Below, one piece after another: positions 21,941-54,181 of a DNA stretch of 64,000 nucleotides. The DNA comes from Granulicella sp. Lineage in GTDB: Bacteria; Acidobacteriota; Terriglobia; Terriglobales; Acidobacteriaceae. Location: contig DAHWNL010000078.1 of assembly GCA_027339965.1 (NCBI GenBank), forward strand, positions 96,001 through 160,000, given 5' to 3'. Under the pieces are notes generated by a model. That model saw only the letters and a list, made by a program, of their open reading frames with translations. It ran no database searches and was not told where the DNA came from. How positions within the stretch are numbered: the first letter of the stretch is position 1; each line of letters starts with the position of its first letter. The translations under genes were made by a program, and so were the position numbers.

Positions 21941-22876
21941 TCAGGCCGGCAAAGTCCGGGCACCATCCGCTCGCCGGTCCACCATCCGCAGATACTCCTG
22001 AGTCAAGAGCAGGCGAAGCGTCCGGTCCGTTTCTGGAGCGCAGGGGGTCTCAAGAGAGCGGCAGCGATCAATGGCCCGGCGCAGATCCCCGAGAAATGCA
22101 ACGCACGGCCGGCAACCCTCGATATGCTTCCGAATCTTTTCGCACCTTGGCTCCACGACCCGCCCATCCATGTACTCGGAAAGATTGGCGAAGATCTCCC
22201 GGCAGGTCTTTGGCTGGGGGCGCACCCCGGCCTGCCTGCCCCTGCGCTCGCGCACTGCCGCAGGAGCCACTCGGTTCTCTGGCTCGACTCCTTCGCCAGT
22301 CGTTGTGTCCGCGGCGGCGAGAAGCTTTCTCAGTTGCAGCCTCGCCCGGTGCAGCCTTACCCTTACCGTTCCCTGCTCTATTCCCAGCACTTGAGCGATC
22401 TGTTCGGTCTCCAAATCCTCCATATCATGGAGCACCAACACCATCCGGTAAGGTGGAGGCAGCATCAGGATCGCCTCCTGAAGGCGTTGGTTCTGTTCAG
22501 CTCTGGAAACCAGTGTCTCCGGATTGGGATTCGGATCCTTCAGTAACTGGCTCAGTTCGGATTCGGCGGGAGTCAGTTCACTCAACGAAAGCATCTGGAC
22601 TGGGGCTTCACTCACCTTGCGCCGCATCCTCCAACAGCGATTGCGCGCTACCTTATACAGCCACACCGCAAGCGCCTTCGGCTCAGTGATCTTGGCCAAA
22701 TGGGGTAGCGACCGCACAAAAACCTCCTGCGCGGTGTCCTCAGCGTCCTCCGTGTGGCCGCATATCTTCATGCTGAAGGCATACACAGTGTTCTGCAGCA
22801 GTTCCAAGGCTTCGTTGACCGCGGCGGCATCCTTTTGCTGCAGCAGGCCGGTTGCTCGAATCAGTTCCGGACGCAT
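21941..22876 (-). CDS. ECF sigma factor with fused C-terminal zinc-finger (ZAS/zf-HC2-like) extension
   Basis: Region 2 DAEDTAQEVF...WLYKVARN; region 4 GTVRVRLHRAR; C-terminal CREIFANLSEYMD...HIEGCRPC; TAGGAG RBS. Confidence 0.88.
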   Translation of the reverse strand: MRPELIRATGLLQQKDAAAVNEALELLQNTVYAFSMKICGHTEDAEDTAQEVFVRSLPHLAKITEPKALAVWLYKVARNRCWRMRRKVSEAPVQMLSLSELTPAESELSQLLKDPNPNPETLVSRAEQNQRLQEAILMLPPPYRMVLVLHDMEDLETEQIAQVLGIEQGTVRVRLHRARLQLRKLLAAADTTTGEGVEPENRVAPAAVRERRGRQAGVRPQPKTCREIFANLSEYMDGRVVEPRCEKIRKHIEGCRPCVAFLGDLRRAIDRCRSLETPCAPETDRTLRLLLTQEYLRMVDRRADGARTLPA

Positions 22877-24174
22877 TGATCTCCTATAGCCCCATCGTTC
22901 TATCCCAGCGCGCCCCAGTTCTCGGTGCGCTCCTTCCTCCATTCTAAAGCTCTGGCTTTCCTGCAATCGGGTCAGTCCCTTGATCTGGTATGAAAAAGAT
23001 CCGCTCAGGCGTCAGACGCTACGACCACCTGCTCGAAGGACTTCAACTGGTCAAAAATTCTTCCGATGCCGCCAAGGGCGAAGTTCTCGACGCGCGCTGC
23101 GCCGCTTTGTTCTTGCCCGGGATCACCTTGGTCCCGGTCTGATCAATGTCTATGCTGAAATGCTCATCGTGGTTCAACTCCAGCGGTGCGGAGCAGAGGA
23201 TACATCGCGGCCATCCGCTCACTTCCTGGAGCCCCCTCACGACCGCCCTCGATCCATTTGCCCACAAGTTGTCCAGAGTCAGGGATGGCTCTCGAACCAC
23301 AGCCAGCACTGCCCTGAACACGGCCTTCACGTTCAGGATGCACAAGAAGGGCGTCTTGCCCGGAAGCCGTTGTTGGCTCCCGCTGAAATCACGGTCCGCT
23401 TGGAACGAAAGGCATAGGCCACAACCACCGACGCGTTGGACTGGGCGCAAAGCCGGGGCTCCCACCCGCCCGTGCCTCCCTTCTACCCCGGGTAGCTATG
23501 GGCAACTCATTCGCTCTGCTTGCCCGCCGTCGTCATTCTGGCTTAGCCCATGACCATTCCCACTGCCCTTTGTCGCATTTCATCCAACGCGGCCCCGAGG
23601 CAAAGGCCTGCCGTGGCCCTTGCTCAGGCCATATTTAAGCCCGGGATCACGCACTCCTTCCATCCAGGATCAATAGGATCGCCCTACAAGGTAACGGCGC
23701 AGCTTTCTGCTTCACTGGACGCCCTGCCAGGATCGGTCATTCCTCTGAACGATAACCAATGTTTAAGAAGGAAGATTCATATCTCCCGGCGAGTATTTCA
23801 TCAAGCTCTCCACTCCCGTTGACCAACCTGTTCCGCCCTATGCAGTCACGATGCGCAGCCGGCTTCGAGGAGCAGCAACGAGAAATCCGCATTTGGACAA
23901 TGCACCAGCGATCCATCTTCCGTCACATGCATTCTGGTCCCCAACTCATTGTGTACAGACGCCGTAAGCATTCGGTGACGATAATCACATACAACCTTCC
24001 TTCGATCTTGATCTGATACATAGCAACGACACTGAGACGATCCGGTGCGCTTCAGTTGCATTCGATATTTCAAAGAGCTTGCAGGTGGAGGAGCGTTTTC
24101 GGACCGTTGGCTGAGATGCAGGTGCCGTGCCATACCTGGAACCAAACAACATTAAATTGATCGAAGGAGAAACG

Positions 24175-24756
24175 ATGAAGCGCATTCTTTCAGTAACTTT
24201 CGTGTTGCTGAGCACAGCAGTTGCCGCGCAGGCGGGAACGATCCACGGTAAGGTGACCGGCGCCAAAGGGCAGTCCGTCGTCTACATTGACGCTATTGCA
24301 GGCAAGACCTTCCCTGCCCCATCGCAGCACGCGGTGATGGATCAAAAGGGTTTGATGTTCGCGCCCCATATTCTGGCGATCCTGAAGGGAACCACTGTGG
24401 ACTTCAAGAACGAAGACAGCGTGGAGCACAACGTGTTCTGGCCTTCCATCAGTGGCAACAAGAGTCTTGGCCACAATATGGGAACCTGGCCGACCGGTCA
24501 ACAACGCAGTTTCAAGTTCGATACTGCTGGAATCGTTCCCCTCCTCTGCAACGTGCATCCCGATATGTATGGTTTTATCGTGGTTTCGCCGACGCCCTAC
24601 TATGCAATAACCGACAAAACAGGCGCCTTCACGATCTCCAATGTTCCCAACGGCACCTATAGCGTGACTGGATGGAACGAGCGAGACAAGATGCGCACCC
24701 ACACCGTTCAGGTTACGGTAAACGGCGATGTAACAGCGACCATTCCCCTGAAGTGA
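24175..24756 (+). CDS. Exported cupredoxin-domain protein (type-1 copper ligands) with carboxypeptidase-regulatory-like flanks
   Basis: Signal peptide; HNVF ... CNVHPDM (His, Cys, His, Met); AAGGAG RBS. Confidence 0.8.
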   Translation: MKRILSVTFVLLSTAVAAQAGTIHGKVTGAKGQSVVYIDAIAGKTFPAPSQHAVMDQKGLMFAPHILAILKGTTVDFKNEDSVEHNVFWPSISGNKSLGHNMGTWPTGQQRSFKFDTAGIVPLLCNVHPDMYGFIVVSPTPYYAITDKTGAFTISNVPNGTYSVTGWNERDKMRTHTVQVTVNGDVTATIPLK

Positions 24757-24826: not shown

Positions 24827-26800
24827 ATGCTGAAGAGATTTGAAAACAAAGCGGTCGACGCGGGATGGCTGAACAGCAATTTCCCCTGCATGATGGCATG
24901 CCCGGCTCATACCAATGCGGGACGGTATGTTGCGCTTATTGCGGAAGGCAAGTACGAAGATGCCTATCGCTATGCGCGTGGTCCAAATCCTTTGGCCAGC
25001 GTCTGTGGCCGGGTTTGCGCTCACCCCTGCGAAACTGCCTGCCGCCGCGGTGAGATTGATCGCCCTATCTCGATCCGGGCTCTCAAACGCTTTTTGACCG
25101 AGCGTCACGGACCTGAGTCCCGGCGGCCCGTTGATATAAATGCTGGTCGCAGACAGGAAAAGCTGCCCTTCAAAATTGCGATTGTGGGAGCCGGACCGGT
25201 TGGCCTTTCAGCCGCTCATGACCTCGCGGTGATGGGCTACTCGGTCACAATCTTTGAGGCCGCGCCGGTAGCAGGCGGCATGCTCCATCTCGGTCTACCG
25301 GAGTACCGGCTTCCTCGCAGTGTGATCCAGGCGCAAGTACGCGAAATCCTTGCAACCGGAGATATCACGCTAAAACTCAACCATGCCGCGGGCCGAGATT
25401 TCACCGTCTCCGGCCTGCGCAGTCAGGGCTTCGATGCGGTTCTGATTGCCGTCGGAGCCCATCGCAGCCGCGACCTTTCCATTCCAGGAGTTGATCTCGA
25501 CGGCGTCCATAAGGGCATCGACTTCCTCCTGAACGTCAATCTTGGCTATCAATTCACCATCGGCAAGAAAGTGGTCGTGATTGGAGGCGGCAATGTCGCC
25601 ATGGATGTGGCCCGTTCGGCAGCCCGAGAGGTGCTTCGCCAGCATTCCGCTGGAGTGCAGGAACAGGAACCTCTCCAGGAGAATGTCAACGCTGTCGCTG
25701 CCAAGGAGATGATGGACATCTCCCTTTCAGCCCTTCGCCTCGGCGCCAGTGAAGTTCATCTGGTATGCCTTGAAAGCCGAGCAGAAATGCCCGCATCCGA
25801 CGAAGAGATCGCTGAAGCCGAGGAAGAAGGAATCATCCTGCACCCCGGACTCGGCCCAAAGCGTATGATCGGCGGCCCTGACGGCGTTACCGCCCTCGAA
25901 GTGCTTAAAACCAAGCAAGTCTTCGATGCGGACGGCCGCTTTAATCCCACATTCTATGAAAACAGCGAGTTTCAACTCGATTGCGACACAATCATCATGG
26001 CCATCGGCCAGGCTCCACGGCTTGACTTCCTCCAGCCGCAGGATGGGGTTGAAATCTCACGCCGGGGTCTGATCGCCGTAGAACCGCGCACGCTCATGAC
26101 CACATCTCCGGGAGTCTTTGCTGGTGGCGACTGCGCATTTGGACCCCGCCTGATCATCGACAGCGTCGCGGACGGCAAGCGAGCAGCGATGGGAATCGAT
26201 GAGTACCTCCGAGGGACTCGTCATCCGGAGCCGACGATCGAGGTCGAGGTCCTGCAACGCCACAGCATGCCGCTCAATCTCCTGGATCTTGTACGGAACG
26301 ACCCTCCCCTGCTTCCCCTGGACCGTCGGACCGGCGTCACCGAGGTCGAAACGGTTTACGACGAAGAGACAGCCCGGGCAGAAGCGCAACGCTGCCTACA
26401 CTGCTGGGTTAACACGATCTTCGAGGGCAGCCCCCTGGATGGAAGTCAATGCATCCTCTGTGGTGGTTGCGTGGATGTGTGCCCAGAGAATTGTCTTGAG
26501 CTGGTAAGCCTGGATCGCTTCGATTTCCAGCCAGCAGTCGTTGAACAGCTTGTTGCCAACGAGAGCCTCCTCACCGTGGAGCTGGATGATGTTCGAGCGA
26601 AGGAGCTTGGCACGATCTCCGGCTCCGTAATGCTGAAAGACGAGACGCGGTGCATCCGTTGCGGCCTCTGCGCAGCACGATGCCCGGTGGGCACGATCAC
26701 CATGGAATCCTACAACCTGATCCCGGCCGAACCGACCGGGCTCATCTCCCCTGAATCCATCGAAGCGCCTCTGCGCGCGACGTTGGCAAACAGAAAGTGA
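24827..26800 (+). CDS. Fe-S flavoprotein NAD(P)H oxidoreductase (GltD/NfnB/SudA/DsrL superfamily) with C-terminal 2x[4Fe-4S] ferredoxin
   Basis: CMMACP...CGRVCAHPCETAC N-domain; GAGPVG and GGGNVAMD Rossmann motifs; CILCGGCVDVCP and CIRCGLCAARCP. Confidence 0.88.
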   Translation: MLKRFENKAVDAGWLNSNFPCMMACPAHTNAGRYVALIAEGKYEDAYRYARGPNPLASVCGRVCAHPCETACRRGEIDRPISIRALKRFLTERHGPESRRPVDINAGRRQEKLPFKIAIVGAGPVGLSAAHDLAVMGYSVTIFEAAPVAGGMLHLGLPEYRLPRSVIQAQVREILATGDITLKLNHAAGRDFTVSGLRSQGFDAVLIAVGAHRSRDLSIPGVDLDGVHKGIDFLLNVNLGYQFTIGKKVVVIGGGNVAMDVARSAAREVLRQHSAGVQEQEPLQENVNAVAAKEMMDISLSALRLGASEVHLVCLESRAEMPASDEEIAEAEEEGIILHPGLGPKRMIGGPDGVTALEVLKTKQVFDADGRFNPTFYENSEFQLDCDTIIMAIGQAPRLDFLQPQDGVEISRRGLIAVEPRTLMTTSPGVFAGGDCAFGPRLIIDSVADGKRAAMGIDEYLRGTRHPEPTIEVEVLQRHSMPLNLLDLVRNDPPLLPLDRRTGVTEVETVYDEETARAEAQRCLHCWVNTIFEGSPLDGSQCILCGGCVDVCPENCLELVSLDRFDFQPAVVEQLVANESLLTVELDDVRAKELGTISGSVMLKDETRCIRCGLCAARCPVGTITMESYNLIPAEPTGLISPESIEAPLRATLANRK

Positions 26801-26807: not shown

Positions 26808-27299
26808 ATGACCACTACAAAAGACACCTATATCGTTCAGGAAGGCGCGGTGCTCGATCGCAGGGAGTTTTTCACCAAGCTCGGTCTCGGCTCTCTGGGC
26901 GTTGCAGCCGTTGGTACATTGGCGTTTTACTACCAGTACCTTTCACCCAACGTACTCTTTGAACCATCCCCCATTGTGAACGCCGGAGCTATTGATCGGT
27001 ATCCTCTGGGCTCCGTCACGCTCGATGTCAACTCAGCAATCTACCTCGTTCATATAGCCAGAGGCTACTTCTCTCTCAGCGCTATTTGCACTCACCTGGG
27101 CTGTATGACCGCGTGGAAGCCCGAGCTCAACATGATCGCATGTCCATGCCATGGAAGCCGCTTCAACCGCGAAGGGCAAAAGCTGGCAGGTCCGGCGCCT
27201 AAACCTCTTCCATGGCTAAAAACCTGGTTGAGTGACGATGGAGAACTCATGGTCGATCGCTCCATTACGATTCCACAGTTCCAATTCTTGAGGGTATAA
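26808..27299 (+). CDS. Rieske [2Fe-2S] protein of a Rieske/cytochrome b complex
   Basis: DRREFF Tat-type anchor; CTHLGC and CPCHGS boxes. Confidence 0.93.
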   Translation: MTTTKDTYIVQEGAVLDRREFFTKLGLGSLGVAAVGTLAFYYQYLSPNVLFEPSPIVNAGAIDRYPLGSVTLDVNSAIYLVHIARGYFSLSAICTHLGCMTAWKPELNMIACPCHGSRFNREGQKLAGPAPKPLPWLKTWLSDDGELMVDRSITIPQFQFLRV

Positions 27300-27302: not shown

Positions 27303-28094
27303 ATGCCGGGCACCATCGAAACCTACTTCGACAAACTCGAACGCACGCGGGTGTGGCGGTCGATCTTCCGCAGCGGCAAGGGCACAAGTACGCTTCACAA
27401 TGCGTTGGCCATTCAGCAAAACGTATTTCTGCACCTGTTCCCCACCAAAGTTCGTAAACGAATGCTCGGGCTGGGCGCTACCTGGTACCTCGGAACACTT
27501 ACGTTGGGCACATTCATCGTTCTAGTCGTCACCGGCATTCTCTTGATGCTCTACTACCATCCATCCGTGCCACGTGCATATTCCGATGTAAAAGATCTCC
27601 AATTTGTCGTTTCTTCAGGTCTTTTCCTGCGCAATCTGCATCGCTGGTCGGCCCATGCGATGGTTTTTCTTGCCTTTGCACACATGTTTCGCGTCTTTTA
27701 CCGCGGAGCATACCGTACCCCGAGAGAATTCAACTGGGTGATCGGGGTCGTTCTTCTTCTGGTAACTCTTCTGCTCAGCTACACCGGCTATCTGTTGCCC
27801 TGGGATCAACTCGCCTTCTGGGCAATCACTGTCGGGACGAACATCTCTTCGGCAGTGCCACTTATCGGCGACAAAATACGCTTTATGCTGCTGGGCGGAC
27901 ATCTTGTGAATGCCAATGCCTTGCTTCGCTTTTACGTTCTGCACTGCGTGATTCTACCGCTCACCGCAGTTCTCTTTTTAGCCGTTCATTTCTGGCGAAT
28001 CCGTAAGGACGGTGGTCTATACGTGCGGGAGACCGAGCCCGGAGTCGCAAATTCGGACCAGGACCTTTCAAATCAGGAGCAGGAATCGCGATGA
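27303..28094 (+). CDS. Cytochrome b6-like (split cytochrome b, N-terminal part)
   Basis: LHRWSAH...[26 protein letters not shown]...VHFWRIRK (four heme-b His). Confidence 0.93.
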
Positions 28095-28795
28095 CGCCTC
28101 CAAAAGACTACTCGGCCGAAGTCAGCTCGAACATGCAGGTTTCCCAACGGCGCGTTCTTTTCGTAACGCGGCGCACCTCTCCTCAGGTTAAAGCGTACGA
28201 CGAGGAGCGAGTGCAGACCTCTCCCGAGGTTCTGATTCGAGCTCTGCTCGCAGTCGAGTGCCTCCTGATTGCCCTGGTACTGATGTCATTGTTCTTCAAC
28301 GCACCGTTGGAAGGAGTTGCCAATCCGACCAACACGCCTAACCCAGCCAAAGCTCCGTGGTACTTTCTTGGGCTGCAGGAGATTTTGCACTACTTCCCAC
28401 CTGTTGTTGCCGGGGTTCTCATTCCTGGATTGCTCGTTACCGCACTCATCATTATTCCCTATTTTGACATCAACATCGAGGCAGATGGCCTCTTTCTCAA
28501 GAATCGCGAGCGGCGTCTGATGCTCTCGATGGCCGTTGCGGGTGCGCTGTCCGTCTTCTTCCTGTTTTTCAAGGTATATGTGGCGCTGGCGCCAACGTTG
28601 CTCGTGACCGCATTCGTGTTGCTTGCGGCGTTCAGCCCTCCAGAGTCGTCAGGACGCTTTCGACGGTATCTCGCACGAAGACCCGTCTTCTGGTGGATTA
28701 TGACCTGGTTTCTATGTGAACTCATCGTTCTCACGGCAGTAGGCACCTTCTTCCGCGGCCCCGGTTGGTCGTGGGTCTGGCCATGGAGGAGTTAG
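28091..28795 (+). CDS. Subunit IV-like (cytochrome b C-terminal part)
   Basis: [21 protein letters not shown], the PEWY-equivalent region; ATGA overlap with cyt b6. Confidence 0.88.
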
Positions 28796-46964: not shown

Positions 46965-47133
46965 GTCCCCGCTTCGCCTACGTAGCAAAAGAACCACTGG
47001 CTGGAGCCAGTCCGGAGAAAGTGGCCGCATAGGGAAGACAACCTCCTTCCTCCCGGGGACGGTCTCCAGCGGTCGGGTACCTCTGTACCACTGGTCGTGC
47101 TGGCAGATTGGCGTTTGCAGCGCCGGCAAACGC

Positions 47134-48263
47134 GTGAGCGCTCAACGAAGCCCAGGGTCAGAGCGCGGCGAGTTCGGCCATGGTCGTGTCGTGGCGTAGC
47201 TTCCACTGGTCGGGGAGCCACAGGTCGAGGTCGGCGTCGGGCGTGACCGGCAGGTTGGTAAGCAGTTGGGTGAAGTAGATCTGCGGGTCGACCGCGTGGC
47301 GGCGGCAGGTCGAGGTCAGGCTGGAATAAGATGGCTGCCGTACGTCCGCCGCGCGGGTTGCCGACGAAGAGGCTGTTCTTCCGGTTTAGAACCACGCGCT
47401 TCATCTCGCACTCGCTGACACGATTGTCCAGCGGTATGGCGGGGTCGAAGAGGAAAACAGTCATCTCGGGCCATTGCCGGAGGGCGCAGCCGACAGCGTC
47501 GGCCATGGGATGCTTGGGCAGCAGGTACTCTTTCCAGCCAAGCAGCTTCTCGCGCGGCGCCGAGTGCTCCCCGCGCAGCGCCAGTCTGGCCGCAGGCTCC
47601 AGATCTTTTGCCTTGCGTTCGACCGCGTAGAGCGCGCGCACGTACTCGACCGCGGCAGCGGCGATCTCGGGAGCGGACTTTTCGGCTTCGACGAATCTTC
47701 TTTTCAGATGCGCCCAGCAGCCGGCGTGCGTGATGCCGTTGCGGGCGACAACTCCGTTGTAGCCGTCGTAACCATCGGAGAGCGCCAACTCGGCAGTCCC
47801 ATCATCCCCACCCTTGCTCTCCCACGGCGACCGGCATCGCTTCCAGCACCCGAATCACCGCGCAAAGTTGATCGCCGTCAAATCCAGGCCCCACCAGAAG
47901 GCTGCGCCCACCGCAAAGGGGAACTTCGATGGTAGACCTGTTCGAGCCCAACGAACTGCCCTCGGTCGGCTCCGCTTGAAGAGCCGGTGACTGGCGACTG
48001 GGTTTTTTCTCGCGAATGCCCCAACGACCGCAACCTCAACAAAACCGTCTGCCGCTCCATCCCTCAACCTCGGCCGCCAGGCGTAAAACCGCCCAACGCG
48101 CAGATCGCGTGCTCGGCAAAACGCCGCCACGCTCGCGCCGCTCATCTCCTGATCTCGAACCTGCTCCCGCCAAACCACCTACTCCGTCTTATCATGACGC
48201 CGCATGGGTCGAGTCTTACGCACCTCGACATCCCGCACAAGATGGCCTTCGTTGAGCGCTCAC
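47134..48263 (-). mobile_element. Internally deleted IS66-family element
   Basis: Perfect 17-bp terminal IRs GTGAGCGCTCAACGAAG (47134-47150) and CTTCGTTGAGCGCTCAC (48247-48263); tnpC fragment (SDGYDGY, HAGCWAHLKRRF, DNRVSE, RKNSLF) and tnpA fragment (SGASVAAFCRA...FYAWR); only 1130 bp. Confidence 0.88.
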
Positions 48264-48286
48264 GGAATTTCTGCTCGATCTGAGGG

Positions 48287-49303
48287 TCAAGTCAGTACCG
48301 TCACCGGACCGCGACCCCTCCAGTTCGGGAAGGGAGACTGGCTGGCTCGCCGCAGTCGTCCTATCATCTCCCGCAGGCGATGGCGTCTGGCAAGCAGCGT
48401 AACTACAAGCAACTCGAGTCGATGGAGATCCGCCCCATGCCATTCTGGCGGCATGGTTTGGGCCAAGCTCCACAGAATGTCGGGGTCAAACTCTTCCATC
48501 CGGCTGAGCCATGGTTCGAAGCTGTTCCACCCGGTCACCCCAGCATAGACTCTATTGTCTGTGCACCTTCCTAGGAGTGGGGTGTCCTGAAACTCCCAAC
48601 GGCTGCCGCTGAAGCAGGACCCCTGATCGATGAACAGAACACGATACTCGGGCTCTTGCGCATTGCGTAGAAAGATGGCTTGGCGACGGTCGGTGTTGCC
48701 GGTCCATTGGTCGAAGGCGAGCATGGGGGCGAACTCACCTAGATTGCATACATTGCGGAGCCACTCGCCAGGCAGGAGATCAAAGGCTTGCTGATGCAGA
48801 ACCCCAGCGCCGAAACGGCTTCCGAACTGCAAGCCGCTAGCGCATCTCTCCCAACGCTGGTCTCCATAATGAATGATGAGTTGCGGACTGCGTTCGATCA
48901 GCCATTCACTGACCTGGATCATTCCCGTCCTCGGCACGGACAGCCCCACCACCTCTGCCATGCGGTTAGCCAGAAACTCATTGGCCGGTACCCGGGGATG
49001 CTGGGGATTATTCTTGAACTTAACCACCCACACTGCGTGGTCTTCACCCAAGATCAACTTGCTCTGCGAACCGCCTCGCAGGGAGGAGATCGCGTGCATC
49101 GCCCTTATCGGCGTCTCTTGGAAAGGCCCCATCTGTCTGGCCGGCTGTCCGGTCAGCGTAGAAACGGCTTCTGAAGCCCCATGCGCTGTCTCCGCCAAGG
49201 GGTTCAGCGATGCTTTGCTCTCCATCCGTCGGGAGGCGCACAATAAGGGTTCTACAGACGCGTCTACTGTCACACTCTGCCACGCGCTCGCTCCCATAAG
49301 CAC
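48287..49303 (-). CDS. HipA-like Ser/Thr kinase (HipA_2 type)
   Basis: RGGSQ, VVKF, NEFLA, FDQWTGNTDRR and FIDQG kinase motifs; the true start is probably downstream of 49303. Confidence 0.75.
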   Translation of the reverse strand: MLMGASAWQSVTVDASVEPLLCASRRMESKASLNPLAETAHGASEAVSTLTGQPARQMGPFQETPIRAMHAISSLRGGSQSKLILGEDHAVWVVKFKNNPQHPRVPANEFLANRMAEVVGLSVPRTGMIQVSEWLIERSPQLIIHYGDQRWERCASGLQFGSRFGAGVLHQQAFDLLPGEWLRNVCNLGEFAPMLAFDQWTGNTDRRQAIFLRNAQEPEYRVLFIDQGSCFSGSRWEFQDTPLLGRCTDNRVYAGVTGWNSFEPWLSRMEEFDPDILWSLAQTMPPEWHGADLHRLELLVVTLLARRHRLREMIGRLRRASQSPFPNWRGRGPVTVLT

Positions 49304-49976
49304 ACACCTCTAGGTGTTAATCGGAGAAAGAAGGTGTATCATGAGATGTGTCGCAATTTGGAGCATCCTTCGCCCAGATTCCATCGCAGTCCGCCGCCCG
49401 ATACCCTCCGCGCTTCCAGTCTGATCCCAGCCAGCGCATGAAGGCCCTCCAGTGGGTTGTCATTCTTCCAACCCATGCTCTTGTTCGCTAAACCGAGCTC
49501 GGGCCTCCACTCTGCCGTCCACAGGTTCGTGGCGACTGTTGGTCGGATCCAACCGCCCCGCTCTAATGCCGGCTTGTTCGGAAATTCCCAGTTCTTTCCT
49601 GGCTCCTTATGCTTGTCAGCGCCAGTTCTTGCCTGAAAGCGCTCTCCAAGTGCGTACCTGGATCTTCACTTCTCTGAGCCTGCCAACAGCCTCGCAACCG
49701 ATCCCCGGCAACAATTCTTCCTCGCCCTCGGAGCCGGCAACACGGAACCAGAGTCCTCTGCGGAGATGAGCGGTCTACTCTCTCTATCCCACTCAGGACT
49801 GGTCTCAGTCACCACCCTTTCATCCGCGGAGATCCAGGATCTTCGTCTTGTGATGAAGCTCACATACGATCGCCCTTTTCGTGCCGCCCAATAAGGCAAC
49901 ATCGAATTGTCCTCCCGAGATTCACCCTCTAGAGGGCCGGTTCGCTGCAATTGCCGGGCGAAAGCGACATCGCTTG

Positions 49977-50450
49977 ATGAAAAACTTCCGGGATTCGGAA
50001 CATCTGCTCAGATTCGCCTTTCTGTTTGCGATGGTGCTCGCCCTCTTTCTAATCGTGCGCCACTTCGTCGTGCCCAAGAGTTTCGGAGAATACGGCCACT
50101 ATCGCGGGGCTGCCATCGGCGAGACCGCCGCACGGCCGATTCACTTCGCCGGACAATCCGCCTGCGCAACCTGCCACACGGACATCGCGGCAACCAAACA
50201 GGCCGGCATGCACGCTGGCGTTCACTGCGAAGCTTGCCACGGGCCTCTGGCCAAGCATGCCGCCGATCCGGCATCCGTTCAGCCGCCCAAACTTGACACC
50301 GCAGTTTTGTGCGTCCGGTGCCATGCAGCCAGCGCCGCCAAGCCGAAGAACTTCCCCCAGGTAGCCGCGGCAGAGCACTCCGGCGGATTGGTCTGTGAGA
50401 CCTGCCACCACCCCCACAGCCCTGCTATTCAAAGTGAAGGCGCCAAATGA
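49977..50450 (+). CDS. Membrane-anchored tetraheme cytochrome c
   Basis: TM helix; CATCH, CEACH, CVRCH and CETCH. Confidence 0.88.
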   Translation: MKNFRDSEHLLRFAFLFAMVLALFLIVRHFVVPKSFGEYGHYRGAAIGETAARPIHFAGQSACATCHTDIAATKQAGMHAGVHCEACHGPLAKHAADPASVQPPKLDTAVLCVRCHAASAAKPKNFPQVAAAEHSGGLVCETCHHPHSPAIQSEGAK

Positions 50451-51181
50451 ATCTCAGTCGACGTCAATTTCTCGTGCTGGTGCCAGCCACGGCTGTCGCA
50501 TGGCAGTATGTGCTTGCCGGCACCCCCCGGGATGCCCCTAACTACCAGCTCGCCGACCACTGGTGGGGCATGTTGCTTGATATCACCAAGTGCATCGGCT
50601 GCGGAAACTGCGTCCGCGCCTGCCAGGCAGAGAACGATGTCCCTGACGGATACTTTCGCACCTGGGTCGAACGCTACCTCAGAACCGATTGGAATCTGAC
50701 CACCCCGGAGGTCATCTCTCCCGACGGCGGCAAAGAAGGCTTCCCGACCGCCGAAGAGGTCAAGGATGGCATGTACTTCTTCGTTCCCAAGATGTGCAAC
50801 CACTGCGCCGACTCTCCCTGTACCCAGGTCTGTCCCGTAGGAGCCACCTTCATCACCCCGGACGGCGTCGTCCTCATCGACCAGACCTACTGCCTTGGCT
50901 GCGCCTACTGCGTGCAGGCCTGCCCCTATGGGTGCCGCTATATTCACCCTACAAGACACGTCGCCGACAAGTGCACGCTCTGCTATCACCGCATCACCAA
51001 GGGCCTTACCACGGCCTGCTGTGAGAACTGCCCCACCGGGGCGCGTCAACTGGTCGATCTCAAAAACCCCAATGATCCCATCCATGCCTTTTTGAAGACG
51101 CATGACGTGCATGTCCTCAAGCCGGAGATGGCAACGGGAGCAAAGGCCTTTTACAACGGTTTGGATGGCTCGGTGCGATAA
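50447..51181 (+). CDS. Tat-exported 4x[4Fe-4S] ferredoxin (NrfC/PsrB/DsrO-like)
   Basis: SRRQFL; CIGCGNCVRAC, CNHCADSPCTQVCP, CLGCAYCVQACP and KCTLC...CCENCP. Confidence 0.9.
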   Translation: MNLSRRQFLVLVPATAVAWQYVLAGTPRDAPNYQLADHWWGMLLDITKCIGCGNCVRACQAENDVPDGYFRTWVERYLRTDWNLTTPEVISPDGGKEGFPTAEEVKDGMYFFVPKMCNHCADSPCTQVCPVGATFITPDGVVLIDQTYCLGCAYCVQACPYGCRYIHPTRHVADKCTLCYHRITKGLTTACCENCPTGARQLVDLKNPNDPIHAFLKTHDVHVLKPEMATGAKAFYNGLDGSVR

Positions 51182-51199: not shown

Positions 51200-52390
51200 A
51201 TGGGCGGCGTCGAAGGCTACATGTATCCCAATGAGATCAATCTGTACTGGAGCGTCCTGATCGTCGTGTACCCCTACGTCACGGGACTGGTCGCAGGCGC
51301 CTTCATTCTGGCATCCCTGGTCCGCATCTTCAACGTGAAAGAGGTCGCCCCGACCTATCGGCTCGCTCTCTTGACCGCCTTGGCGTTCCTCATTGTGGCG
51401 CCCTTGCCGTTGCTGCTCCACCTCGGTCATCCCGAGCGCTGTTTTGAGATGTACTTCACCCCCCATGACACCTCGGCCATGGCCATGTTTGGCTACGTCT
51501 ATATCTGGTACCTAATGGCTGTGCTGTTGTTCGAGATCTGGCTTGACTTCCGCCATGACATCATCCTCACCGCCCGCTCCTCAAAGGGCCTCAAGCGAGC
51601 CTTCTATGTCCTGCTGAGTCTGGGCTCGAATAACACCAGCGAGCACTCTCTCGCCGTCGATGAACGTGCCGGATGGATCGTCACTCTGATTGGCATTCCT
51701 TCCGCCTTCCTTCTCCACGGATACGTTGGCTTCATCTTCGGTTCCATCAAAGCCAATCCGTGGTGGAGTTCACCCCTCATGCCGGTGGTCTTCATCTTCT
51801 CCGCCATGGTCTCCGGCATCGCTCTGGTGCTGCTGGTCTATATGTTCACCACACGTGCGCGCCATCGCGAAATCGACATGCCCTGCGTGGACACCATCGC
51901 CAGGTATCTCCTCTATATCTTCATCATCGACTTTGTCATGGAGATGCTCGACCTGGTCCATCGCATCTATGTCGCCGACGAGAGCTTCCGTTCCATCAAC
52001 TTTATGGTCCACACCAAACTCTACTTCTCCCAGATTGTCCTTCAGATCTACATCGGAACCCTGGTACCGCTGATCCTCCTGGGCATCGTTCAGGTGACCA
52101 GACTCTCCCCATCCCTGCGCAAGGCCATCTATGCCCTTTCGGCTGCACTGATCGAGATCGCAGTGGTCTCCATGCGCTGGAATGTGGTCATCGGCGGGCA
52201 GCTCTTCTCCAAAAGCTTCCTCGGATATACCACCTACAAGATCGGCCTGATTACTCACGAAGGGCTGTTCATGGCCGTCTTCCTCACCCTGCTCCCGCTG
52301 GCCTTCCTGTGGGTCCTGGTCAAGATACTTCCCCCTTGGCCGGAGCTCAAGCGGGGTATGAATCGCGTCGCAAGTGTAACCATGCCATAA
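51200..52390 (+). CDS. NrfD/PsrC-family quinol-interacting membrane subunit
   Basis: WSVLIVVYPYVTGLVAG, HLGHPER, LHGYVGFIF and RWNVVIGGQ; multiple TM helices; AGGAGG RBS. Confidence 0.9.
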   Translation: MGGVEGYMYPNEINLYWSVLIVVYPYVTGLVAGAFILASLVRIFNVKEVAPTYRLALLTALAFLIVAPLPLLLHLGHPERCFEMYFTPHDTSAMAMFGYVYIWYLMAVLLFEIWLDFRHDIILTARSSKGLKRAFYVLLSLGSNNTSEHSLAVDERAGWIVTLIGIPSAFLLHGYVGFIFGSIKANPWWSSPLMPVVFIFSAMVSGIALVLLVYMFTTRARHREIDMPCVDTIARYLLYIFIIDFVMEMLDLVHRIYVADESFRSINFMVHTKLYFSQIVLQIYIGTLVPLILLGIVQVTRLSPSLRKAIYALSAALIEIAVVSMRWNVVIGGQLFSKSFLGYTTYKIGLITHEGLFMAVFLTLLPLAFLWVLVKILPPWPELKRGMNRVASVTMP

Positions 52391-52429
52391 CTGCGCCCGA
52401 CTGAGACCATCCCGGGTGAAGGGGGGACC

Positions 52430-54181
52430 ATGAACGAAGACCCCTTAAACGAGGTCGAGCAGTTGAGCCAACGCCTGGACGCTCGATTGCGTGCATTGGA
52501 GAGGCGGGTTGATCAGCTGGAGCGCCGGCAGGAAAGATCCTCGTCTCCACGAAACCCTTCGCTCGCTCATGCCCTGGAGCCCAGTGCCGAACCCACAATA
52601 CCGTCTCTGCCCGGCACGGGTGGAACCCTCCCGATTCTTGGCAGAGCAGTACTTGGGATCGCGGGTGCTTACCTTCTCCGCGCCATGGCTCAGCTGGCTT
52701 CGCCCCTACATTTCGCGGTTCTTGCACTGGCCATCGTCTATGCCATGAGCTGGCTGGCGCTGGCCGGCAGAGTTCGTCATGCGGCGTGGTTTGCGCGCCC
52801 CACCTATGCTCTCACCTCGGCCCTGATTCTCATTCCCATGCTGTGGGAGATGACGCTTCGCTTCCAGATGTTCAGCCCGGTCACCAGCGCCTGCGTTCTT
52901 GGAGCCTTCGCGCTGGAGGGATTGGTTCTTACCTGGAGGTGTTACAGTGCGACCGTGCTCTGGTTGGCCTATAGCGCTTCCCTGGCGGGATCCATCGCAC
53001 TCATGTTCGCGGCTCATCGGGTGATGCCATTTGGATGGGTGGTGCTCGGAGTTGCCTTGGCGAGCGAGATCGCCCAAAGCATGGGCCATAGGCTGCGGGG
53101 ACGTCTCCTCTCCGCGATTGCCATCGACTTAATCATCAGCTTTTTGATCTACGTCTACTCCATGCCGGAGAACGCTCGCCCAGCTTACCCCGATGCATCG
53201 ATCCCTCTTCTGGTCGCGTTGGCCTCCATTCCGTTCTTTCTCTATCTTGGCAGCTACTCTATCCAAACCCTATCCAACACGCGAACCATCACGGTCTTTG
53301 AGATGGCTCAGATCGTGCTCACATTCTTCTTTGCCTGCTACGGTTCCATGGTGCTCAGCTCCGGGCGCTACAAGGTTGCCATTGGAGCCATCTGCATTGC
53401 ATTGGCTGCCGCGGGCTATGGCATTGCCCCATGGCGCTTGGGCGATCAAAACCACCCGCGCAACCTTCGCGCCTACACCACCGCAAGCACAGCCTGGATG
53501 CTTCTCGGTTGCTCCCTTGCGCTTCCCCATGCATGGTTGGCGCCGGTACTGGGTCTGGCAGCCTTCATCGTAACCTTGGTAGGAGGGTGCCGGTCAGAGC
53601 CTATTCTGCTGGCCCAGGGCGGAGCCCTTCTGCTGGCGGCTTCGTTCTTCTCAGGGCTCCTAGAATTCTGCTTGCATGCTCTATCCGGGACGCACCCCTT
53701 AGCGCCTCCATGGATCATCTTGCTCGTTCTGGCTTTCGCTATGCTTGCCTATGCAGCCGGAGCCCGCAGTCCGCAGGGACAGACCGAGGTAGAGATCGCA
53801 CAACTCGCTTCAGCGTCTCTGATCAGCGCAACCGCGGCGTCCTTCGCAACATTTTTCATCGAGACGGCTATCGCGCATCGCGGAGGCCTGAAACTGCTCT
53901 ATACCGGAGGCTTGCTGGAGTTCCTTCAAACGCTGATGCTGTGCGCTCTTTCTCTGTGCCTGGCGGCAATCGGACCGCGCTGGAACAAGAACATACTGAC
54001 TTGGCTGGCCTACACAACGCTCGTGATGACCGCTGCTAAAATCCTTCTTGAGGACGCGCTCCACGGGCATCTGGTGTTCATCGCCGCTTCTTTCATTCTC
54101 TATGCTGCCACCTTGATGCTCCTGCCGCGTCTCTCCCGTCCTCGCCGCAAGGGACCGGCTCTGATCTCAAAGCTCCTTTGA
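52430..54181 (+). CDS. Polytopic membrane protein (DUF2339-like)
   Basis: N-terminal coiled coil (LRALERRVDQLE) followed by many hydrophobic helices. Confidence 0.6.
   Translation: MNEDPLNEVEQLSQRLDARLRALERRVDQLERRQERSSSPRNPSLAHALEPSAEPTIPSLPGTGGTLPILGRAVLGIAGAYLLRAMAQLASPLHFAVLALAIVYAMSWLALAGRVRHAAWFARPTYALTSALILIPMLWEMTLRFQMFSPVTSACVLGAFALEGLVLTWRCYSATVLWLAYSASLAGSIALMFAAHRVMPFGWVVLGVALASEIAQSMGHRLRGRLLSAIAIDLIISFLIYVYSMPENARPAYPDASIPLLVALASIPFFLYLGSYSIQTLSNTRTITVFEMAQIVLTFFFACYGSMVLSSGRYKVAIGAICIALAAAGYGIAPWRLGDQNHPRNLRAYTTASTAWMLLGCSLALPHAWLAPVLGLAAFIVTLVGGCRSEPILLAQGGALLLAASFFSGLLEFCLHALSGTHPLAPPWIILLVLAFAMLAYAAGARSPQGQTEVEIAQLASASLISATAASFATFFIETAIAHRGGLKLLYTGGLLEFLQTLMLCALSLCLAAIGPRWNKNILTWLAYTTLVMTAAKILLEDALHGHLVFIAASFILYAATLMLLPRLSRPRRKGPALISKLL

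Follow-up and report, generated by a model that had tools for sequence, protein, structure and literature searches.

A conserved Cyc2-Rieske operon, an NrfCD quinone module and a 15.1-kb insertion side by side in a Granulicella genome

The window analysed here, a 64,000-nucleotide stretch from Granulicella sp., carries a redox region in three blocks for which a preliminary description had listed Cyc2-like, Rieske/cytochrome b, NAD(P) oxidoreductase, HZS-like and NrfCD genes, a gene content borne out by Pfam and NCBIfam. Gene calls with the same profiles reproduced the location of all core genes on the plus strand, and a recount of the CxxCH motifs gave the same total of 19 (8+1+1+1+1+3+4), one of which sits in a Cyc2 pseudogene copy. 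The first block and the gene divergent from it comprise the following features:

21941..22966, minus strand: ECF sigma factor with a fused zf-HC2 anti-sigma-like domain (Pfam Sigma70_r2/r4 and zf-HC2; NCBIfam sigma70-ECF)
24127-33122, plus strand: conserved operon (unit 1; profile searches and synteny), with the eight genes below
24127..24756, plus strand: periplasmic type-1 cupredoxin, C-terminal CarboxypepD_reg-like domain (Pfam Copper-bind)
24827..26800, plus strand: cytoplasmic NAD(P)-binding Fe-S flavoprotein, GltD/NfnA-like (Pfam Fer4_20, Pyr_redox_2, Fer4)
26808..27299, plus strand: Rieske [2Fe-2S] subunit (Pfam Rieske)
27303..28094, plus strand: cytochrome b6-type subunit, four-helix split form (Pfam Cytochrome_B)
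28091..28795, plus strand: subunit IV-like (SUIV) membrane subunit (Pfam Cytochrom_B_C; NCBIfam ExtQ)
28796..30853, plus strand: membrane-anchored octaheme cytochrome c (eight CxxCH; Pfam Cytochrom_C, Cytochrome_CBB3, Cytochrome_C7)
30850..31584, plus strand: monoheme cytochrome c lipoprotein with Ig-like domain (Pfam Big_1, Cytochrome_CBB3)
31764..33122, plus strand: Cyc2a, intact Cyc2-type fused cytochrome-porin (CxxCH motif, AlphaFold2, Foldseek)

The actual unit thus listed consists of eight genes, from the cupredoxin to Cyc2, and the ECF sigma gene keeps its position in the closest relative, G005 (85% amino acid identity). The cupredoxin, with a probable ATG start at 24175, has a signal-like N-terminus and a copper motif Cys-x2-His-x2-Met at residues 141-147. 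The flavoprotein has four Cys clusters and lacks TM helices; it scores 453 bits against NCBIfam PRK12771, below the cut-off of 516, its top PDB matches are NfnA 9n5u and 9bov/9bp5 (Bfu-type NfnABC), and the Cys and GxGxxG columns of its alignment (A2) are invariant. For the Rieske protein, whose box II signature is Ser...Phe, the top PDB match is 9rk4 with 88.4 bits, against at most 64.8 bits for b6f Rieske proteins; 9rk4 is described as the Kuenenia Kuste4569 Rieske protein (PMC12954380). The cytochrome b6-like subunit reaches 263 bits with NCBIfam ExtP and 191 bits with cytochrome b6, and its four heme-ligand His are invariant (alignment A3), while SUIV carries the Qo motif A-P-W-Y at residues 88-91. 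The octaheme cytochrome combines four c3/c7-like hemes with four class-I domains behind a single N-terminal hydrophobic segment, and the monoheme cytochrome has one CxxCH and a lipobox-like N-terminus. In Cyc2a, a single CxxCH at residue 42 has A-V-P-S-Y-A-R-Q-T before it and P-E-L after it; its AlphaFold2 model (pLDDT 91.5) has 16 long strands, and its Foldseek matches are outer-membrane porins, OprP (2o4v) among them.

This first block is a conserved and widespread operon of the Acidobacteriaceae. Of 301 family genomes, 82 carry its NAD(P) oxidoreductase marker, a tally that includes one unpublished genome (G287), and the seven-gene core is complete in 69 of the 80 loci around block-1 homologues, with the cupredoxin first in all 69; of the other 11 loci, ten run into a contig end and the last is a lone paralogue. 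Cyc2 adjoins the core in 47 of the 62 loci whose flanks reach at least 1.7 kb on both sides (36 upstream, 11 downstream), and its absence beside the core in the remaining 15 indicates that the complex is not strictly dependent on an adjacent Cyc2. A further Cyc2 paralogue of the same genome (50% identity) precedes a Rieske gene and a cytochrome b-tetra-cytochrome c fusion. No description of the eight-gene Cyc2-Rieske operon was found in the literature.

Downstream of Cyc2a, collinearity with G005 breaks off, and the window continues with these features:

33190-48315: insertion of 15.1 kb (decayed Cyc2 duplicate, IS3, seven-gene cassette, IS66 fragment), defined by the collinearity break against G005
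33190..33994, no strand: non-coding left end of the insertion; G005 collinearity stops at 33190
34025-35383, plus strand: Cyc2b, second Cyc2 copy, pseudogene (ORF split by an in-frame TAG at 34220-34222)
35480..36990, minus strand: IS3-family element, orfA and orfB (ORFs within 35646-36861; Pfam rve, rve_3, HTH_21, HTH_Tnp_1; NCBIfam transpos_IS3)
36992..46967, plus strand: seven-gene cassette of about 10 kb (genes 37071-46964; Pfam/NCBIfam families)
46968..48314, minus strand: IS66 transposase fragment (47300-47788) and repeat DNA, right end of the insertion (Pfam DDE_Tnp_IS66)
48287..49303, minus strand: HipA-like kinase gene (Pfam HipA_2, HipA_C)

Collinearity between G005 and the window extends over 23926-33190 and 48315-54301, and G005 has 411 bp in place of the 15.1 kb; Cyc2b, the IS3 element, the cassette and the IS66 fragment were not found at this place in G005, where a HipA-like gene is the sole separator of the first and third blocks. 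The 15.1-kb segment is, in this regard, a secondary insertion between units 1 and 2. Cyc2b is 84% identical to Cyc2a and is a pseudogene because of its one in-frame TAG. Of the separators named in the preliminary description, IS3 was confirmed by profiles and IS66 as a fragment covering just positions 131-283 of DDE_Tnp_IS66. For the proposed IS1595 remnant at 33190-33994, neither Pfam nor NCBIfam returned a match at E <= 1, and a 115-145-bp repeat within that segment recurs at three other sites of the genome. Nor is the HipA-like gene mobile DNA: it is native to the locus, since it occupies the same position in G005 (82% amino acid identity) and adjoins the tetraheme gene in G019.

That the arrangement is no artefact of this one assembly is shown by four further public runs, which come from four studies and contain contigs matching it at 95% or more; one of these studies is probably that of the source itself, with a different sample. 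The listed pieces from runs X2, X3 and X9 bridge the Cyc2a-insert, IS3-cassette, cassette-IS66 and IS66-HipA junctions, and those of X3 and X9 additionally Cyc2b-IS3, which is also the sole junction bridged (35538-35880) by the short pieces listed for X10 (341-645 bp). As to an iron context, near-identical DNA is contained in runs labelled as mine drainage, sediment and wastewater metagenomes, and the runs aligned to the window included each of these labels. The IS3 element is single-copy in the assembly, and 168 bp of it (36052-36221) are missing from the contigs of the four other runs. Contigs C80, C31 and C50 carry copies related to the IS66 fragment, read depth doubles at this region in other runs, and the repeat core (47.39-47.75 kb) is tiled in those runs by short contigs alone, which makes the right join of the cassette less secure than the left one.

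The HZS-like periplasmic cassette encodes, in order, a DAHP synthase, an HZS-alpha-like protein with one heme motif, an FG-GAP/ASPIC protein, an HZS-beta-gamma-like protein with three, a Reg_prop propeller, a RidA-like protein and a Peripla_BP_6 protein, and its PDB matches are 5c2v_B (116.9 bits), 5c2v_C (59.7 bits) and 5c2v_A (34.8 bits). Its GC content is 61.0%, against 55.2% for the first block. It was found beside none of the 80 block-1 loci and in only 3 of the 301 family genomes, compared with 82 for the block-1 marker; it was not found in G005 (93% complete), and in G019 and G007 it lies on contigs other than that of block 1. In G000 (contig C81) and G019 (C179) its orthologous home locus is flanked by squalene-synthesis rather than respiratory genes, with an amine-oxidase and two SQS_PSY genes downstream in both. 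These two copies are 89.0% identical to each other at the nucleotide level, and the one in the window is 80.8% identical to the former and 81.7% to the latter, an equidistance that argues against a recent duplication within the genome. The cassette in the window is thus an extra, diverged copy of one whose home locus is unrelated.

Beyond the HipA-like gene lies the third block:

49881-54181, plus strand: four-gene quinone module (unit 2): tetraheme c, NrfC, NrfD, 14-TM protein
49881..50450, plus strand: membrane-anchored tetraheme cytochrome c (four CxxCH; Pfam c554/c3/c7)
50447..51181, plus strand: NrfC-type four-cluster Fe-S protein (Pfam Fer4_11)
51200..52390, plus strand: NrfD-type quinone-interacting membrane subunit (Pfam NrfD, 124.5 bits)
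52430..54181, plus strand: conserved 583-aa membrane protein, fourth gene of the NrfCD module

The tetraheme cytochrome, with a probable start at about 49977, has one TM-like segment, and the NrfC-type protein has a twin-arginine-like N-terminus and scores under the cut-offs of NCBIfam TtrB, DsrO and NrfC. The NrfD-type subunit shows nine TM-like segments. The 583-aa protein combines some 14 TM helices with a coiled coil at its N-terminus and matches no Pfam or NCBIfam family; its gene lies 3' of NrfD in G005, G019 and G007, and likewise in L049, L071 and L086, where the identity is 34%. The first and third blocks adjoin in G005, but among 24 other genomes with both markers only seven have them on one contig, one of these within 10 kb, and in six genomes they are 125 kb to 5 Mb apart. 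The module is independent and happens to stand beside unit 1 in the lineage of the window. The two units may still be functionally tied, since both occur in 28 of the 301 genomes against 14.2 expected (related genomes not being independent) and neighbour each other in several arrangements (L021, L049, L071, L086, G229), although across the family they are mostly unlinked.

The idea of one ancestral super-operon, advanced in the preliminary description, fails on the comparison of synteny with relatives that had been set beforehand: the cassette drops out entirely, being found at none of the 80 loci around block-1 homologues, whereas the quinone module adjoins the first block in the nearest relative and is mostly unlinked elsewhere in the family. 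The best explanation as a whole, which we hold to be probable, is that three unrelated units make up the region, namely the Cyc2-Rieske operon, the NrfCD quinone module and the 15.1-kb insertion.

From the gene families, synteny and insertion demonstrated above, we infer a mechanism centred on the first operon. Of the complete chain initially envisaged, a part is encoded by this operon alone, leading from the Cyc2-type porin of the outer membrane over the cupredoxin and c cytochromes of the periplasm to the Rieske/cytochrome b complex and its cytoplasmic NAD(P) oxidoreductase. The operon most likely connects iron outside the cell or in the periplasm, by way of Cyc2, with the quinone (menaquinone) and NAD(P) pools. 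As to direction, we lean, tentatively and on the predicted proteins, towards outward flow, in which quinol oxidation would deliver electrons through Cyc2 to a high-potential acceptor, with a b-heme branch to NAD(P)+. Inward flow, in which the chain would be fed by Fe(II) oxidation, is the slightly less favoured alternative: Fe(II) oxidation is the result of all functional work on Cyc2, but, by textbook potentials, NAD(P)H would be obtained without further energy input in the quinol-oxidising direction only. Cyc2 cluster 3, which includes Leptospirillum Cyt572, was rated the most uncertain in function by its authors.

In the preferred outward direction, quinol would be oxidised at the Qo site, and a first electron would pass from the Rieske protein to the octaheme cytochrome, the monoheme cytochrome c or cupredoxin, Cyc2 and finally a high-potential acceptor, for instance Fe(III) at low pH; alternatively, it might reach an oxidase through the cupredoxin. 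The second electron would run over the b hemes, the four Fe-S clusters and FAD to NAD(P)+, as proposed for Kuenenia (PMC12954380), although NAD(P)H may instead serve as input at the flavoprotein side. According to PMC8790237, cultivated Acidobacteriaceae from acidic, metal-rich waters show Fe(III) reduction under micro-oxic conditions, and a model given there for Acidithiobacillus leads from quinol through bc1, cytochrome c, rusticyanin and Cyc2 to Fe(III).

The label anammox-type is supported for the Rieske/cytochrome b part; the HZS-like proteins lie far under their family cut-offs. Assignment of the former to the anammox 'APWY' type is supported by its motifs, as the Qo APWY together with the Ser and Phe of the Rieske protein fit the APWY clade, to which mid-to-high-potential Rieske proteins are ascribed (PMC4122944). 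As described in PMC12954380, Kuenenia-type complexes contain a b6-like cytochrome b, SUIV, a cytochrome c with six or eight hemes, and an NAD(P) oxidoreductase carrying four Fe-S clusters, the same subunit architecture as here, and NfnA is the structural homologue named there too for the oxidoreductase. On the basis of operon conservation and this analogy, the NAD(P) oxidoreductase would be a subunit of the membrane complex. In comparison with cytochrome f-containing complexes, the membrane-anchored octaheme cytochrome c takes the place of cytochrome f.

The part of the window that stands out is an eight-gene operon joining an outer-membrane cytochrome of the Cyc2 type, a cupredoxin and a Rieske/cytochrome b complex with an NAD(P) oxidoreductase, which, judged from its genes and neighbourhoods, is conserved in the Acidobacteriaceae. 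Its combination of genes was found without description in the literature on Cyc2, Rieske proteins and Acidobacteriota (subscription-only papers and supplements being outside this scope), and the available portion of PMC9599518, on peat Terracidiphilus genomes, holds no passage on Rieske, porin or multiheme proteins. Pfam and NCBIfam scans together with motif counts reproduced the gene inventory of the preliminary description, where this operon was part of a 32-kb redox island. All block genes lie on the + strand within 30 kb, and the announced total of 19 CxxCH motifs holds, but only when a second Cyc2 copy is counted. The genome is metagenome-assembled (3.8 Mb in 88 contigs, estimated 98.9% complete), and the features of the window are the following.

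24127-33122, + strand: block 1, the core operon, with genes for a cupredoxin, a 657-aa GltD/NfnA-like NAD(P) Fe-S flavoprotein, a Rieske protein, a cytochrome b6-like protein, a SUIV-like protein, an octaheme cytochrome c, a monoheme cytochrome c lipoprotein and a 452-aa protein with one CxxCH (Pfam and NCBIfam scans, motif counts)
37071-46964, + strand: block 2, the HZS-like cassette, with genes for a DAHP synthase, an HZS-alpha-like protein (one CxxCH), an FG-GAP/ASPIC protein, an HZS-beta-gamma-like protein (three CxxCH), a Reg_prop propeller, a RidA-like protein and a Peripla_BP_6 protein (Pfam and NCBIfam scans, motif counts)
49881-54181, + strand: block 3, with genes for a tetraheme cytochrome c, NrfC, NrfD and a 583-aa protein
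1-20000 and 55000-64000: flanks, with genes for a TonB-dependent receptor, a GH3 protein, a rhamnosidase-like protein, leucine-catabolism enzymes, glucuronate isomerase, glycogen phosphorylase and alpha-galactosidase; by content, they read as the gene neighbourhood of an organotroph

Block 1 has the composition described for the Rieske/cytochrome b complexes of the anammox bacterium Kuenenia. According to the available text of PMC12954380, those complexes contain a b6-like four-helix cytochrome b, a SUIV-like subunit, a c-type cytochrome with six or eight hemes and a putative cytoplasmic NAD(P) oxidoreductase in which four Fe-S clusters lead to FAD, the NAD(P) link in anammox being a proposal of Kartal 2013 as told there. 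In the window, the cytochrome b6-like and SUIV-like proteins match Pfam Cytochrome_B (263 aa) and Cytochrom_B_C (234 aa), a 685-aa membrane-anchored protein with eight CxxCH takes the place of cytochrome f or c1, and the oxidoreductase has the Pfam domains of an FAD enzyme with four Fe-S clusters, with invariant Cys groups and two GxGxxG sites (alignment A2). The top match of the Rieske protein among all PDB chains was 9rk4 (88.4 bits), the Rieske protein (Kuste4569) of the Kuenenia Kuste4569-4574 complex, against 63.3 bits for 9rk3 (Kustd1480) and at most 64.8 bits for b6f Rieske proteins. The best PDB matches of the oxidoreductase were NfnA and Bfu-type NfnABC, the same homologue that PMC12954380 names for the Kuenenia oxidoreductase, and its gene adjoins the Rieske gene in 79 of the 80 related loci. 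The HAO-like octaheme subunit, which belongs to Kuste4569-4574 only, was not found with Pfam and NCBIfam in the operon, nor among the genes scored in the 80 loci. Moreover, the Qo motif of the SUIV-like protein is APWY and box II of the Rieske protein has a Ser...Phe signature, so that by its motifs the complex would belong to the APWY clade of Kao and Hunte 2014 (PMC4122944); in the accessible parts of that work, the clade is found in Deltaproteobacteria, Planctomycetes, Nitrospirales and other groups, and its partners are mid-to-high-potential Rieske proteins with a Ser-Phe or Ser-Tyr signature. The earlier label of "anammox-type" parts is thus borne out for the Rieske/cytochrome b part by the Kuste4569 match and the composition, and fails for the HZS part at the cut-offs given below. 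As a separate observation, another genome of the family (G311:C57:76105-85003) encodes a 51%-identical oxidoreductase paralogue at a distance of 6 kb from a homologue of NrfD (66%), a hint that the flavoprotein may also partner NrfCD-type modules.

The 452-aa protein (Cyc2a) is predicted, from its sequence and model, to be a cytochrome-porin of the Cyc2 type, with all the characters required by Keffer et al. 2021 save for a Tyr/Phe swap. In the sections available (PMC8406198), these are a signal peptide, a single CXXCH preceded by AXPXFAR[Q/K][T/Y] and followed after about four residues by PXL, a minimum of 365 aa and a porin of 16 strands. By inspection, a hydrophobic N-terminal stretch, modelled by AlphaFold2 as a helix at residues 5-23, ends in A-M-A before the motif; the sole CxxCH is at residue 42 and is preceded by A-V-P-S-Y-A-R-Q-T, with Tyr where the consensus of 91 family members (A-V-P-S-F-A-R-Q-T) has Phe, and P-E-L begins at the fourth residue past the His, with P50 near-invariant and L52 invariant (alignment A1). 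The AlphaFold2 model (pLDDT 91.5, pTM 0.87) has 16 long strands at residues 93-451 after a small helical heme region. With this model Foldseek returned at least 500 matches, of which those listed down to rank 50 were all outer-membrane beta-barrel proteins, mostly porins including OprP (2o4v), plus the AlgE exporter; porins were found by this fold search alone, the profile search of PDB sequences returning none. The family of Cyc2a comprises 2209 clusters at 50% identity that reach E <= 0.001. No Pfam or NCBIfam model matches the protein, the 120 homologues among the matches listed are all unnamed or "hypothetical", ten cluster look-ups gave one name, "Cytochrome C", and the Atlas offered nothing beyond "Cytochrome c family protein" and neighbours resembling porins. 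In a published similarity network, as far as its available description goes, Acidobacteria homologues adjoin Leptospirillum Cyt572 (PMC10654088). The second copy in the window, Cyc2b (34025-35383), is 84% identical to Cyc2a and has its frame broken by a TAG codon. A third paralogue, 50% identical, is found about 74 kb upstream of the window's first base (locus L020, G000:C70:22157-27180), where it is followed by a Rieske gene and a gene for a 910-aa protein in which cytochrome b is fused to four class-I cytochrome c domains, the NAD(P) oxidoreductase being absent from this locus. Cyc2 and a Rieske/cytochrome b complex are therefore paired twice in this genome, and the same 50%-type paralogue is carried by another genome of the genus (G007).

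The distribution of these genes was followed in an even draw of 301 genomes of the family, the present one included. The marker for the NAD(P) oxidoreductase was found in 82 of them (one unpublished, G287), spread over 59 of 142 genera, the NrfD marker in 52 and the HZS-beta-gamma-like marker in three. Among 80 loci examined around homologues of the oxidoreductase, the seven-gene core from the cupredoxin to the monoheme cytochrome c is complete in 69, whereas contig ends truncate ten of the remaining 11 and the last is a lone paralogue. In the 62 loci where each flank measured at least 1.7 kb, so that adjacency could be judged, Cyc2 adjoins the core in 47 (36 upstream of the cupredoxin gene and 11, as in the window, downstream of the monoheme gene) and does not in 15. 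Block 3 is adjacent to the core in four of the 80 loci (L021, which is that of G005, and L049, L071 and L086), and block 2 in none.

From these parts and their conserved linkage, which are observed, we infer an electron path. Cyc2 would stand in the outer membrane, with the cupredoxin and the monoheme cytochrome c in the periplasm. At the inner membrane, the octaheme cytochrome c and the Rieske protein would be on the outer side, the b hemes would span the membrane, and the four Fe-S clusters and FAD would lie on the cytoplasmic side. Tentatively, and with the reserve due to a proposal that is rather unlikely in so specific a form, the eight genes may make up a single path from the cytoplasm to the cell surface with the Cyc2 porin-cytochrome as its exit, working either as a bifurcating menaquinol:Fe(III)/NAD(P)+ oxidoreductase or as an NAD(P)H:Fe(III) oxidoreductase. 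With potentials of about -0.07 V for menaquinone, -0.32 V for NAD(P) and up to about +0.7 V for Fe(III)/Fe(II) at low pH, the oxidation of quinol could drive the reduction of NAD(P)+ only if the other electron falls to a high-potential acceptor. Such a mechanism would be the one proposed for anammox, with iron, or oxygen reached via the cupredoxin, replacing nitrite. As to direction, outward electron flow comes just short of being probable, Fe(II) oxidation is a serious if less than probable possibility, and other possibilities make up the remainder. Outward flow is favoured because the habitat labels include mine drainage, because the flanks of the window encode organotrophic functions, and because, in the accessible text of PMC8790237, Fe(III) reduction in micro-oxic settings is reported for Acidicapsa species and Acidobacterium capsulatum, and a model is given for Acidithiobacillus in which electrons pass from quinol through bc1, cytochrome c, rusticyanin and Cyc2 to Fe(III).

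On the other hand, the inward direction stays alive because the activity found in tested Cyc2 proteins is Fe(II) oxidation and because the APWY clade has been proposed to run in reverse. The core operon would then be a Fe(II)-oxidation pathway like rus/petI of Acidithiobacillus ferrooxidans, in which Cyc2 oxidises Fe(II), the cupredoxin and the c cytochromes lead to a terminal oxidase, and an uphill branch passes through the APWY-type complex in reverse, reducing quinone. In favour of this reading, which we consider quite possible without thinking it probable, the Cyc2 homologues of tested activity are Fe(II) oxidases (PMC8406198), the set of cupredoxin, cytochrome c, Cyc2 and a bc-type complex parallels rus/petI (PMC10654088, PMC8790237), and APWY complexes have been suggested to accept electrons from a high-potential chain (PMC4122944), all as stated in the available parts of these works; in addition, the habitat labels are iron-rich. 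However, the potentials imply that the reversed complex would consume NAD(P)H rather than make it, the flanks encode the breakdown of polysaccharides and leucine, as is typical of an organotroph, cultured relatives have been described as reducing Fe(III), and no terminal oxidase gene was found with Pfam in the operon or in the 80 related loci.

Block 3 has the make-up of an NrfCD-type quinol module, with Fer4_11 and NrfD Pfam matches over their cut-offs and a Tat-like leader (R-R-Q-F-L), and neither a catalytic molybdopterin subunit nor an NrfA gene was found next to it with Pfam and NCBIfam. Its fourth gene (52430-54181) encodes the 583-aa protein, which has about 14 TM segments and a coiled coil at the N-terminus and belongs to no Pfam or NCBIfam family. 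A 34%-identical version of it follows NrfD in L049, L071 and L086, and the protein has the same position in three same-genus genomes (G005, G019 and G007). These three genomes are the only ones among 24 of the genus that have the oxidoreductase marker, at 96% (G005), 85% (G019) and 80% (G007) identity, and all three also carry block 3. In G005, the closest relative, the order is UxaC, ECF sigma, cupredoxin ... Cyc2, HipA (- strand), a small ORF, tetraheme, NrfC, NrfD and the 583-aa protein; its DNA is collinear with positions 23926-33190 and 48315-54301 of the window, with 411 bp in between versus 15.1 kb in the window. Blocks 1 and 3 of G019 share one contig, about 9 kb apart, with genes for a gamma-glutamyltranspeptidase, an FAD/Fe-S oxidase and an FHA-GAF protein between them, and the three blocks of G007 lie on three contigs.

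A functional pairing of blocks 1 and 3, the HZS-like cassette being an unrelated passenger, is doubtful. It would agree with their adjacency in G005, where only HipA intervenes, with their proximity in G019, with the adjacent arrangements at L049, L071 and L086, with a distance of 9 kb in a further genome (G229) and with the presence of block 3 in every same-genus genome that has block 1. Both markers occur together in 28 of the 301 genomes versus 14.2 expected, an excess that ignores shared ancestry and is an indication only, and the outcome of a Fisher test was not read as a probability, since genomes that are related do not count as independent observations. Against the pairing, block 3 occurs without block 1 in 24 of its 52 genomes and block 1 without block 3 in 54 of its 82, and in G007 block 3 is on another contig beside a malate/lactate dehydrogenase gene. 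Moreover, 24 other genomes have a core-type oxidoreductase (at least 69% identity) together with NrfD, on different contigs in 17 and on one contig in seven, and in the latter group G229 is accompanied by six genomes with long contigs where the two are 125 kb to 5 Mb apart.

With respect to block 2, homology points to true but remote relatives of all three HZS subunits, the scores against PDB chains being 116.9 bits for 5c2v_B, 59.7 for 5c2v_C and 34.8 for 5c2v_A. By the tests of cut-off and length, the cassette does not encode a hydrazine synthase: the NCBIfam equivalog cut-offs stay out of reach for alpha (40 vs 800 bits), the beta-gamma fusion (149 vs 1250), beta (136 vs 560) and gamma (64 vs 625), and the HZS-alpha-like protein has 472 aa and one CxxCH against the 782 aa of 5c2v_A, to which it aligns at residues 55-136 and 380-432 only. 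Pairs of hzsA-like and fused hzsBC-like genes have been reported in Phycisphaerae (UBA1845) in PMC10732223, the authors of which suggest, in the part available, a wider family of HZS-like enzymes with other substrates. It was also observed that the cassette brings together heme proteins and propellers of the periplasm, a DAHP synthase and a RidA-like protein. An HZS-like gene was located in the window, elsewhere in the same genome (G000:C81), and at G019:C179, G007:C23, G009:C5 and G121:C8, and the same seven-gene cassette was found in all four copies compared (window, G000:C81, G019 and G007). The other copy of this genome is also full (C81:1081-10895). At the DNA level the window cassette is 80.8% identical to the C81 copy and 81.7% to that of G019, whereas these two are 89.0% identical to each other and share, downstream, an amine oxidase gene and a pair of squalene/phytoene synthase genes, which identifies the C81 copy as the resident orthologue. 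The cassette of the window, with 61.0% GC versus 55.2% in block 1, is an older paralogue or an import placed between IS3 and an IS66 fragment, and a recent duplication within the genome as its source is ruled out by the identity pattern (81% vs 89.0%).

That the island could be an assembly or binning chimera joined at repeats (the Cyc2 duplicates, IS3 and IS66) is very improbable. The source genome is indeed a metagenome assembly in 88 contigs, the junctions fall at repeats, and depth doubles over the IS66 fragment, whose repeat core (47.39-47.75 kb) is tiled by short pieces only. Near-identical DNA is present, however, in runs from six studies, and four runs, each of a separate study, had their contigs mapped on positions 31000-50900, one of these studies being the probable source study with a different sample. 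Among the pieces listed, contigs from X2, X3 and X9 (public sequencing runs of three studies, one of them that of the probable source) bridge the junctions of Cyc2a with the 15.1-kb insert, of IS3 with the cassette, of the cassette with IS66, and of IS66 with HipA and block 3, with at most 10 differing letters per bridging piece, and the Cyc2b/IS3 junction is also bridged in X3 and X9. The pieces listed for the fourth run, X10, measure 341-645 bp; one of them (35538-35880) spans Cyc2b-IS3 and none spans another junction, six of its 30 depth bins being uncovered. Depth is even over the stretch outside the repeat. Moreover, the DNA past the IS66 fragment is exactly that found past Cyc2 in G005, the pattern expected of a simple insertion.

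Of the three IS remnants reported initially, IS3 and the IS66 fragment were confirmed and the IS1595 remnant was not, no ORF in 33328-33953 having a Pfam or NCBIfam match; a likeness of a 70-aa ORF to the C-terminus of IS1595 found no support in the same profile scans. Within this region, a stretch of 115-145 bp (33326-33469) recurs at 82-89% identity on three other contigs of the genome (C29, C51 and C17) and may be a small dispersed repeat or an IS end. All four runs have a form of IS3 lacking 168 bp (36052-36221), and in the window the orfA and orfB frames of IS3 overlap by about 530 bp, seemingly unusually long; the window form may carry an internal duplication. The flanks of the cassette, IS3 on the left and an IS66 fragment on the right, are not those of a composite transposon, in which the cargo would be enclosed by two copies of one IS.

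The notion that all three blocks descend from one super-operon forming a single chain (from Cyc2 through the cupredoxin, cytochromes and HZS-like enzyme to NrfCD and Rieske/cytochrome b and on to NAD(P)H) and split later by IS insertions has, on gene order, been largely refuted and is scarcely credible: it could draw on block genes all on the + strand within 30 kb, on IS3 and IS66 DNA at two gaps and on the electron supply that the periplasmic heme proteins of block 2 would require, but block 2 was not found in G005 (93% complete), lies on contigs other than that of block 1 in G019 and G007, is near block 1 in none of the 80 loci, occurs in three of the 301 family genomes versus 82 for block 1 and stands alone in G121, has its orthologous home locus beside squalene-synthesis genes and is present in the window as a diverged extra copy, while in six genomes that have blocks 1 and 3 on one contig a distance of 125 kb to 5 Mb separates them. 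The expected contiguity of the three blocks in relatives thus fails outright for block 2, and the opposite expectation, of blocks at unlinked loci, holds for block 2 and, in most of the family, for block 3, which stands beside block 1 in G005. Taken as one unit, the 32-kb island is not, by these arrangements, real biology.

Cyc2 is a common metagenome marker of iron oxidation, and as such it may mislead in organotrophs with the core operon. To our knowledge, work on NAD(P)-linked Rieske/cytochrome b complexes has been confined to anammox bacteria, for which we know of neither a pure culture nor a genetic system. Whether the anammox complexes truly bifurcate electrons to NAD(P)H is still described as an open question in the available text of PMC12954380. 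The same architecture is present in about one quarter of the sampled Acidobacteriaceae genomes, usually with Cyc2 and cupredoxin. With iron, it gives the high-potential partner a name, and its hosts may be tractable; several genomes of the family that consist of a single contig have the operon. The architecture is in addition a concrete candidate for the iron reduction of acidophilic Acidobacteriaceae, which is described without a mechanism in the accessible parts of PMC8790237. If the path with its exit at the cell surface were true, it would supply the mechanism, missing so far, by which the Acidobacteriaceae of acid soils and mine waters reduce iron and perhaps cycle it reversibly, and NAD(P)-coupled Rieske/cytochrome b complexes, treated until now as an anammox peculiarity, would be widespread in a soil family with cultured members.

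Among known systems, the Cbc-type sets of Geobacter resemble the window in that its cytochrome b6-like, SUIV-like and c-type subunits score best with the NCBIfam models ExtP, ExtQ and ExtS, although all scores are below the equivalog cut-offs. The tetraheme, NrfC and NrfD of block 3 have what we take to be the composition of the Geobacter Cbc4 complex, and we know of no NAD(P) oxidoreductase or Cyc2 partner in these sets. The clusters of Phycisphaerae UBA1845 share with block 2 an alpha-like and a fused beta-gamma-like protein in one cluster and low scores to Kuenenia HZS, but in the window the two genes are split by the FG-GAP/ASPIC gene, the alpha-like protein is short (472 aa, one heme), and a DAHP synthase, a RidA-like and a Peripla_BP_6 protein are added. 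Like Cyc2 and Cyt572 of Acidithiobacillus, Mariprofundus and Leptospirillum, the window protein, known by sequence and model, has a putative signal peptide, an N-terminal CxxCH, the family motif and PxL, about 450 aa and a predicted 16-stranded porin, but it carries Tyr for Phe and sits in a Rieske/cytochrome b-NAD(P) operon. The rus/petI system of Acidithiobacillus ferrooxidans (Cyc2, rusticyanin, CycA1, bc1 and SdrA) likewise joins Cyc2, a cupredoxin, a c cytochrome and a Rieske/cytochrome b complex, links iron to the quinone and NAD(P) pools and has been proposed to be bidirectional (PMC10654088, PMC8790237, in the parts available). It uses, however, a canonical bc1 and a separate NDH-1, whereas here one operon encodes a b6/SUIV-type complex, an octaheme cytochrome c and a putatively attached NAD(P) flavoprotein. 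In Kuenenia Kuste4569-4574 and Kustd1480-1485 we find again the split b6-type cytochrome b and SUIV-like subunit, the Rieske protein, closest here to Kuste4569, the hexa- or octaheme cytochrome c replacing cytochrome f and the cytoplasmic NAD(P) oxidoreductase with four Fe-S clusters and FAD. In contrast, the host here is an organotroph of the Acidobacteriaceae instead of an anammox planctomycete, the HAO-like octaheme subunit is missing, and a cupredoxin, a monoheme lipoprotein and an outer-membrane Cyc2 are encoded in addition, so that iron or oxygen, and not nitrite, is probably the partner of high potential.
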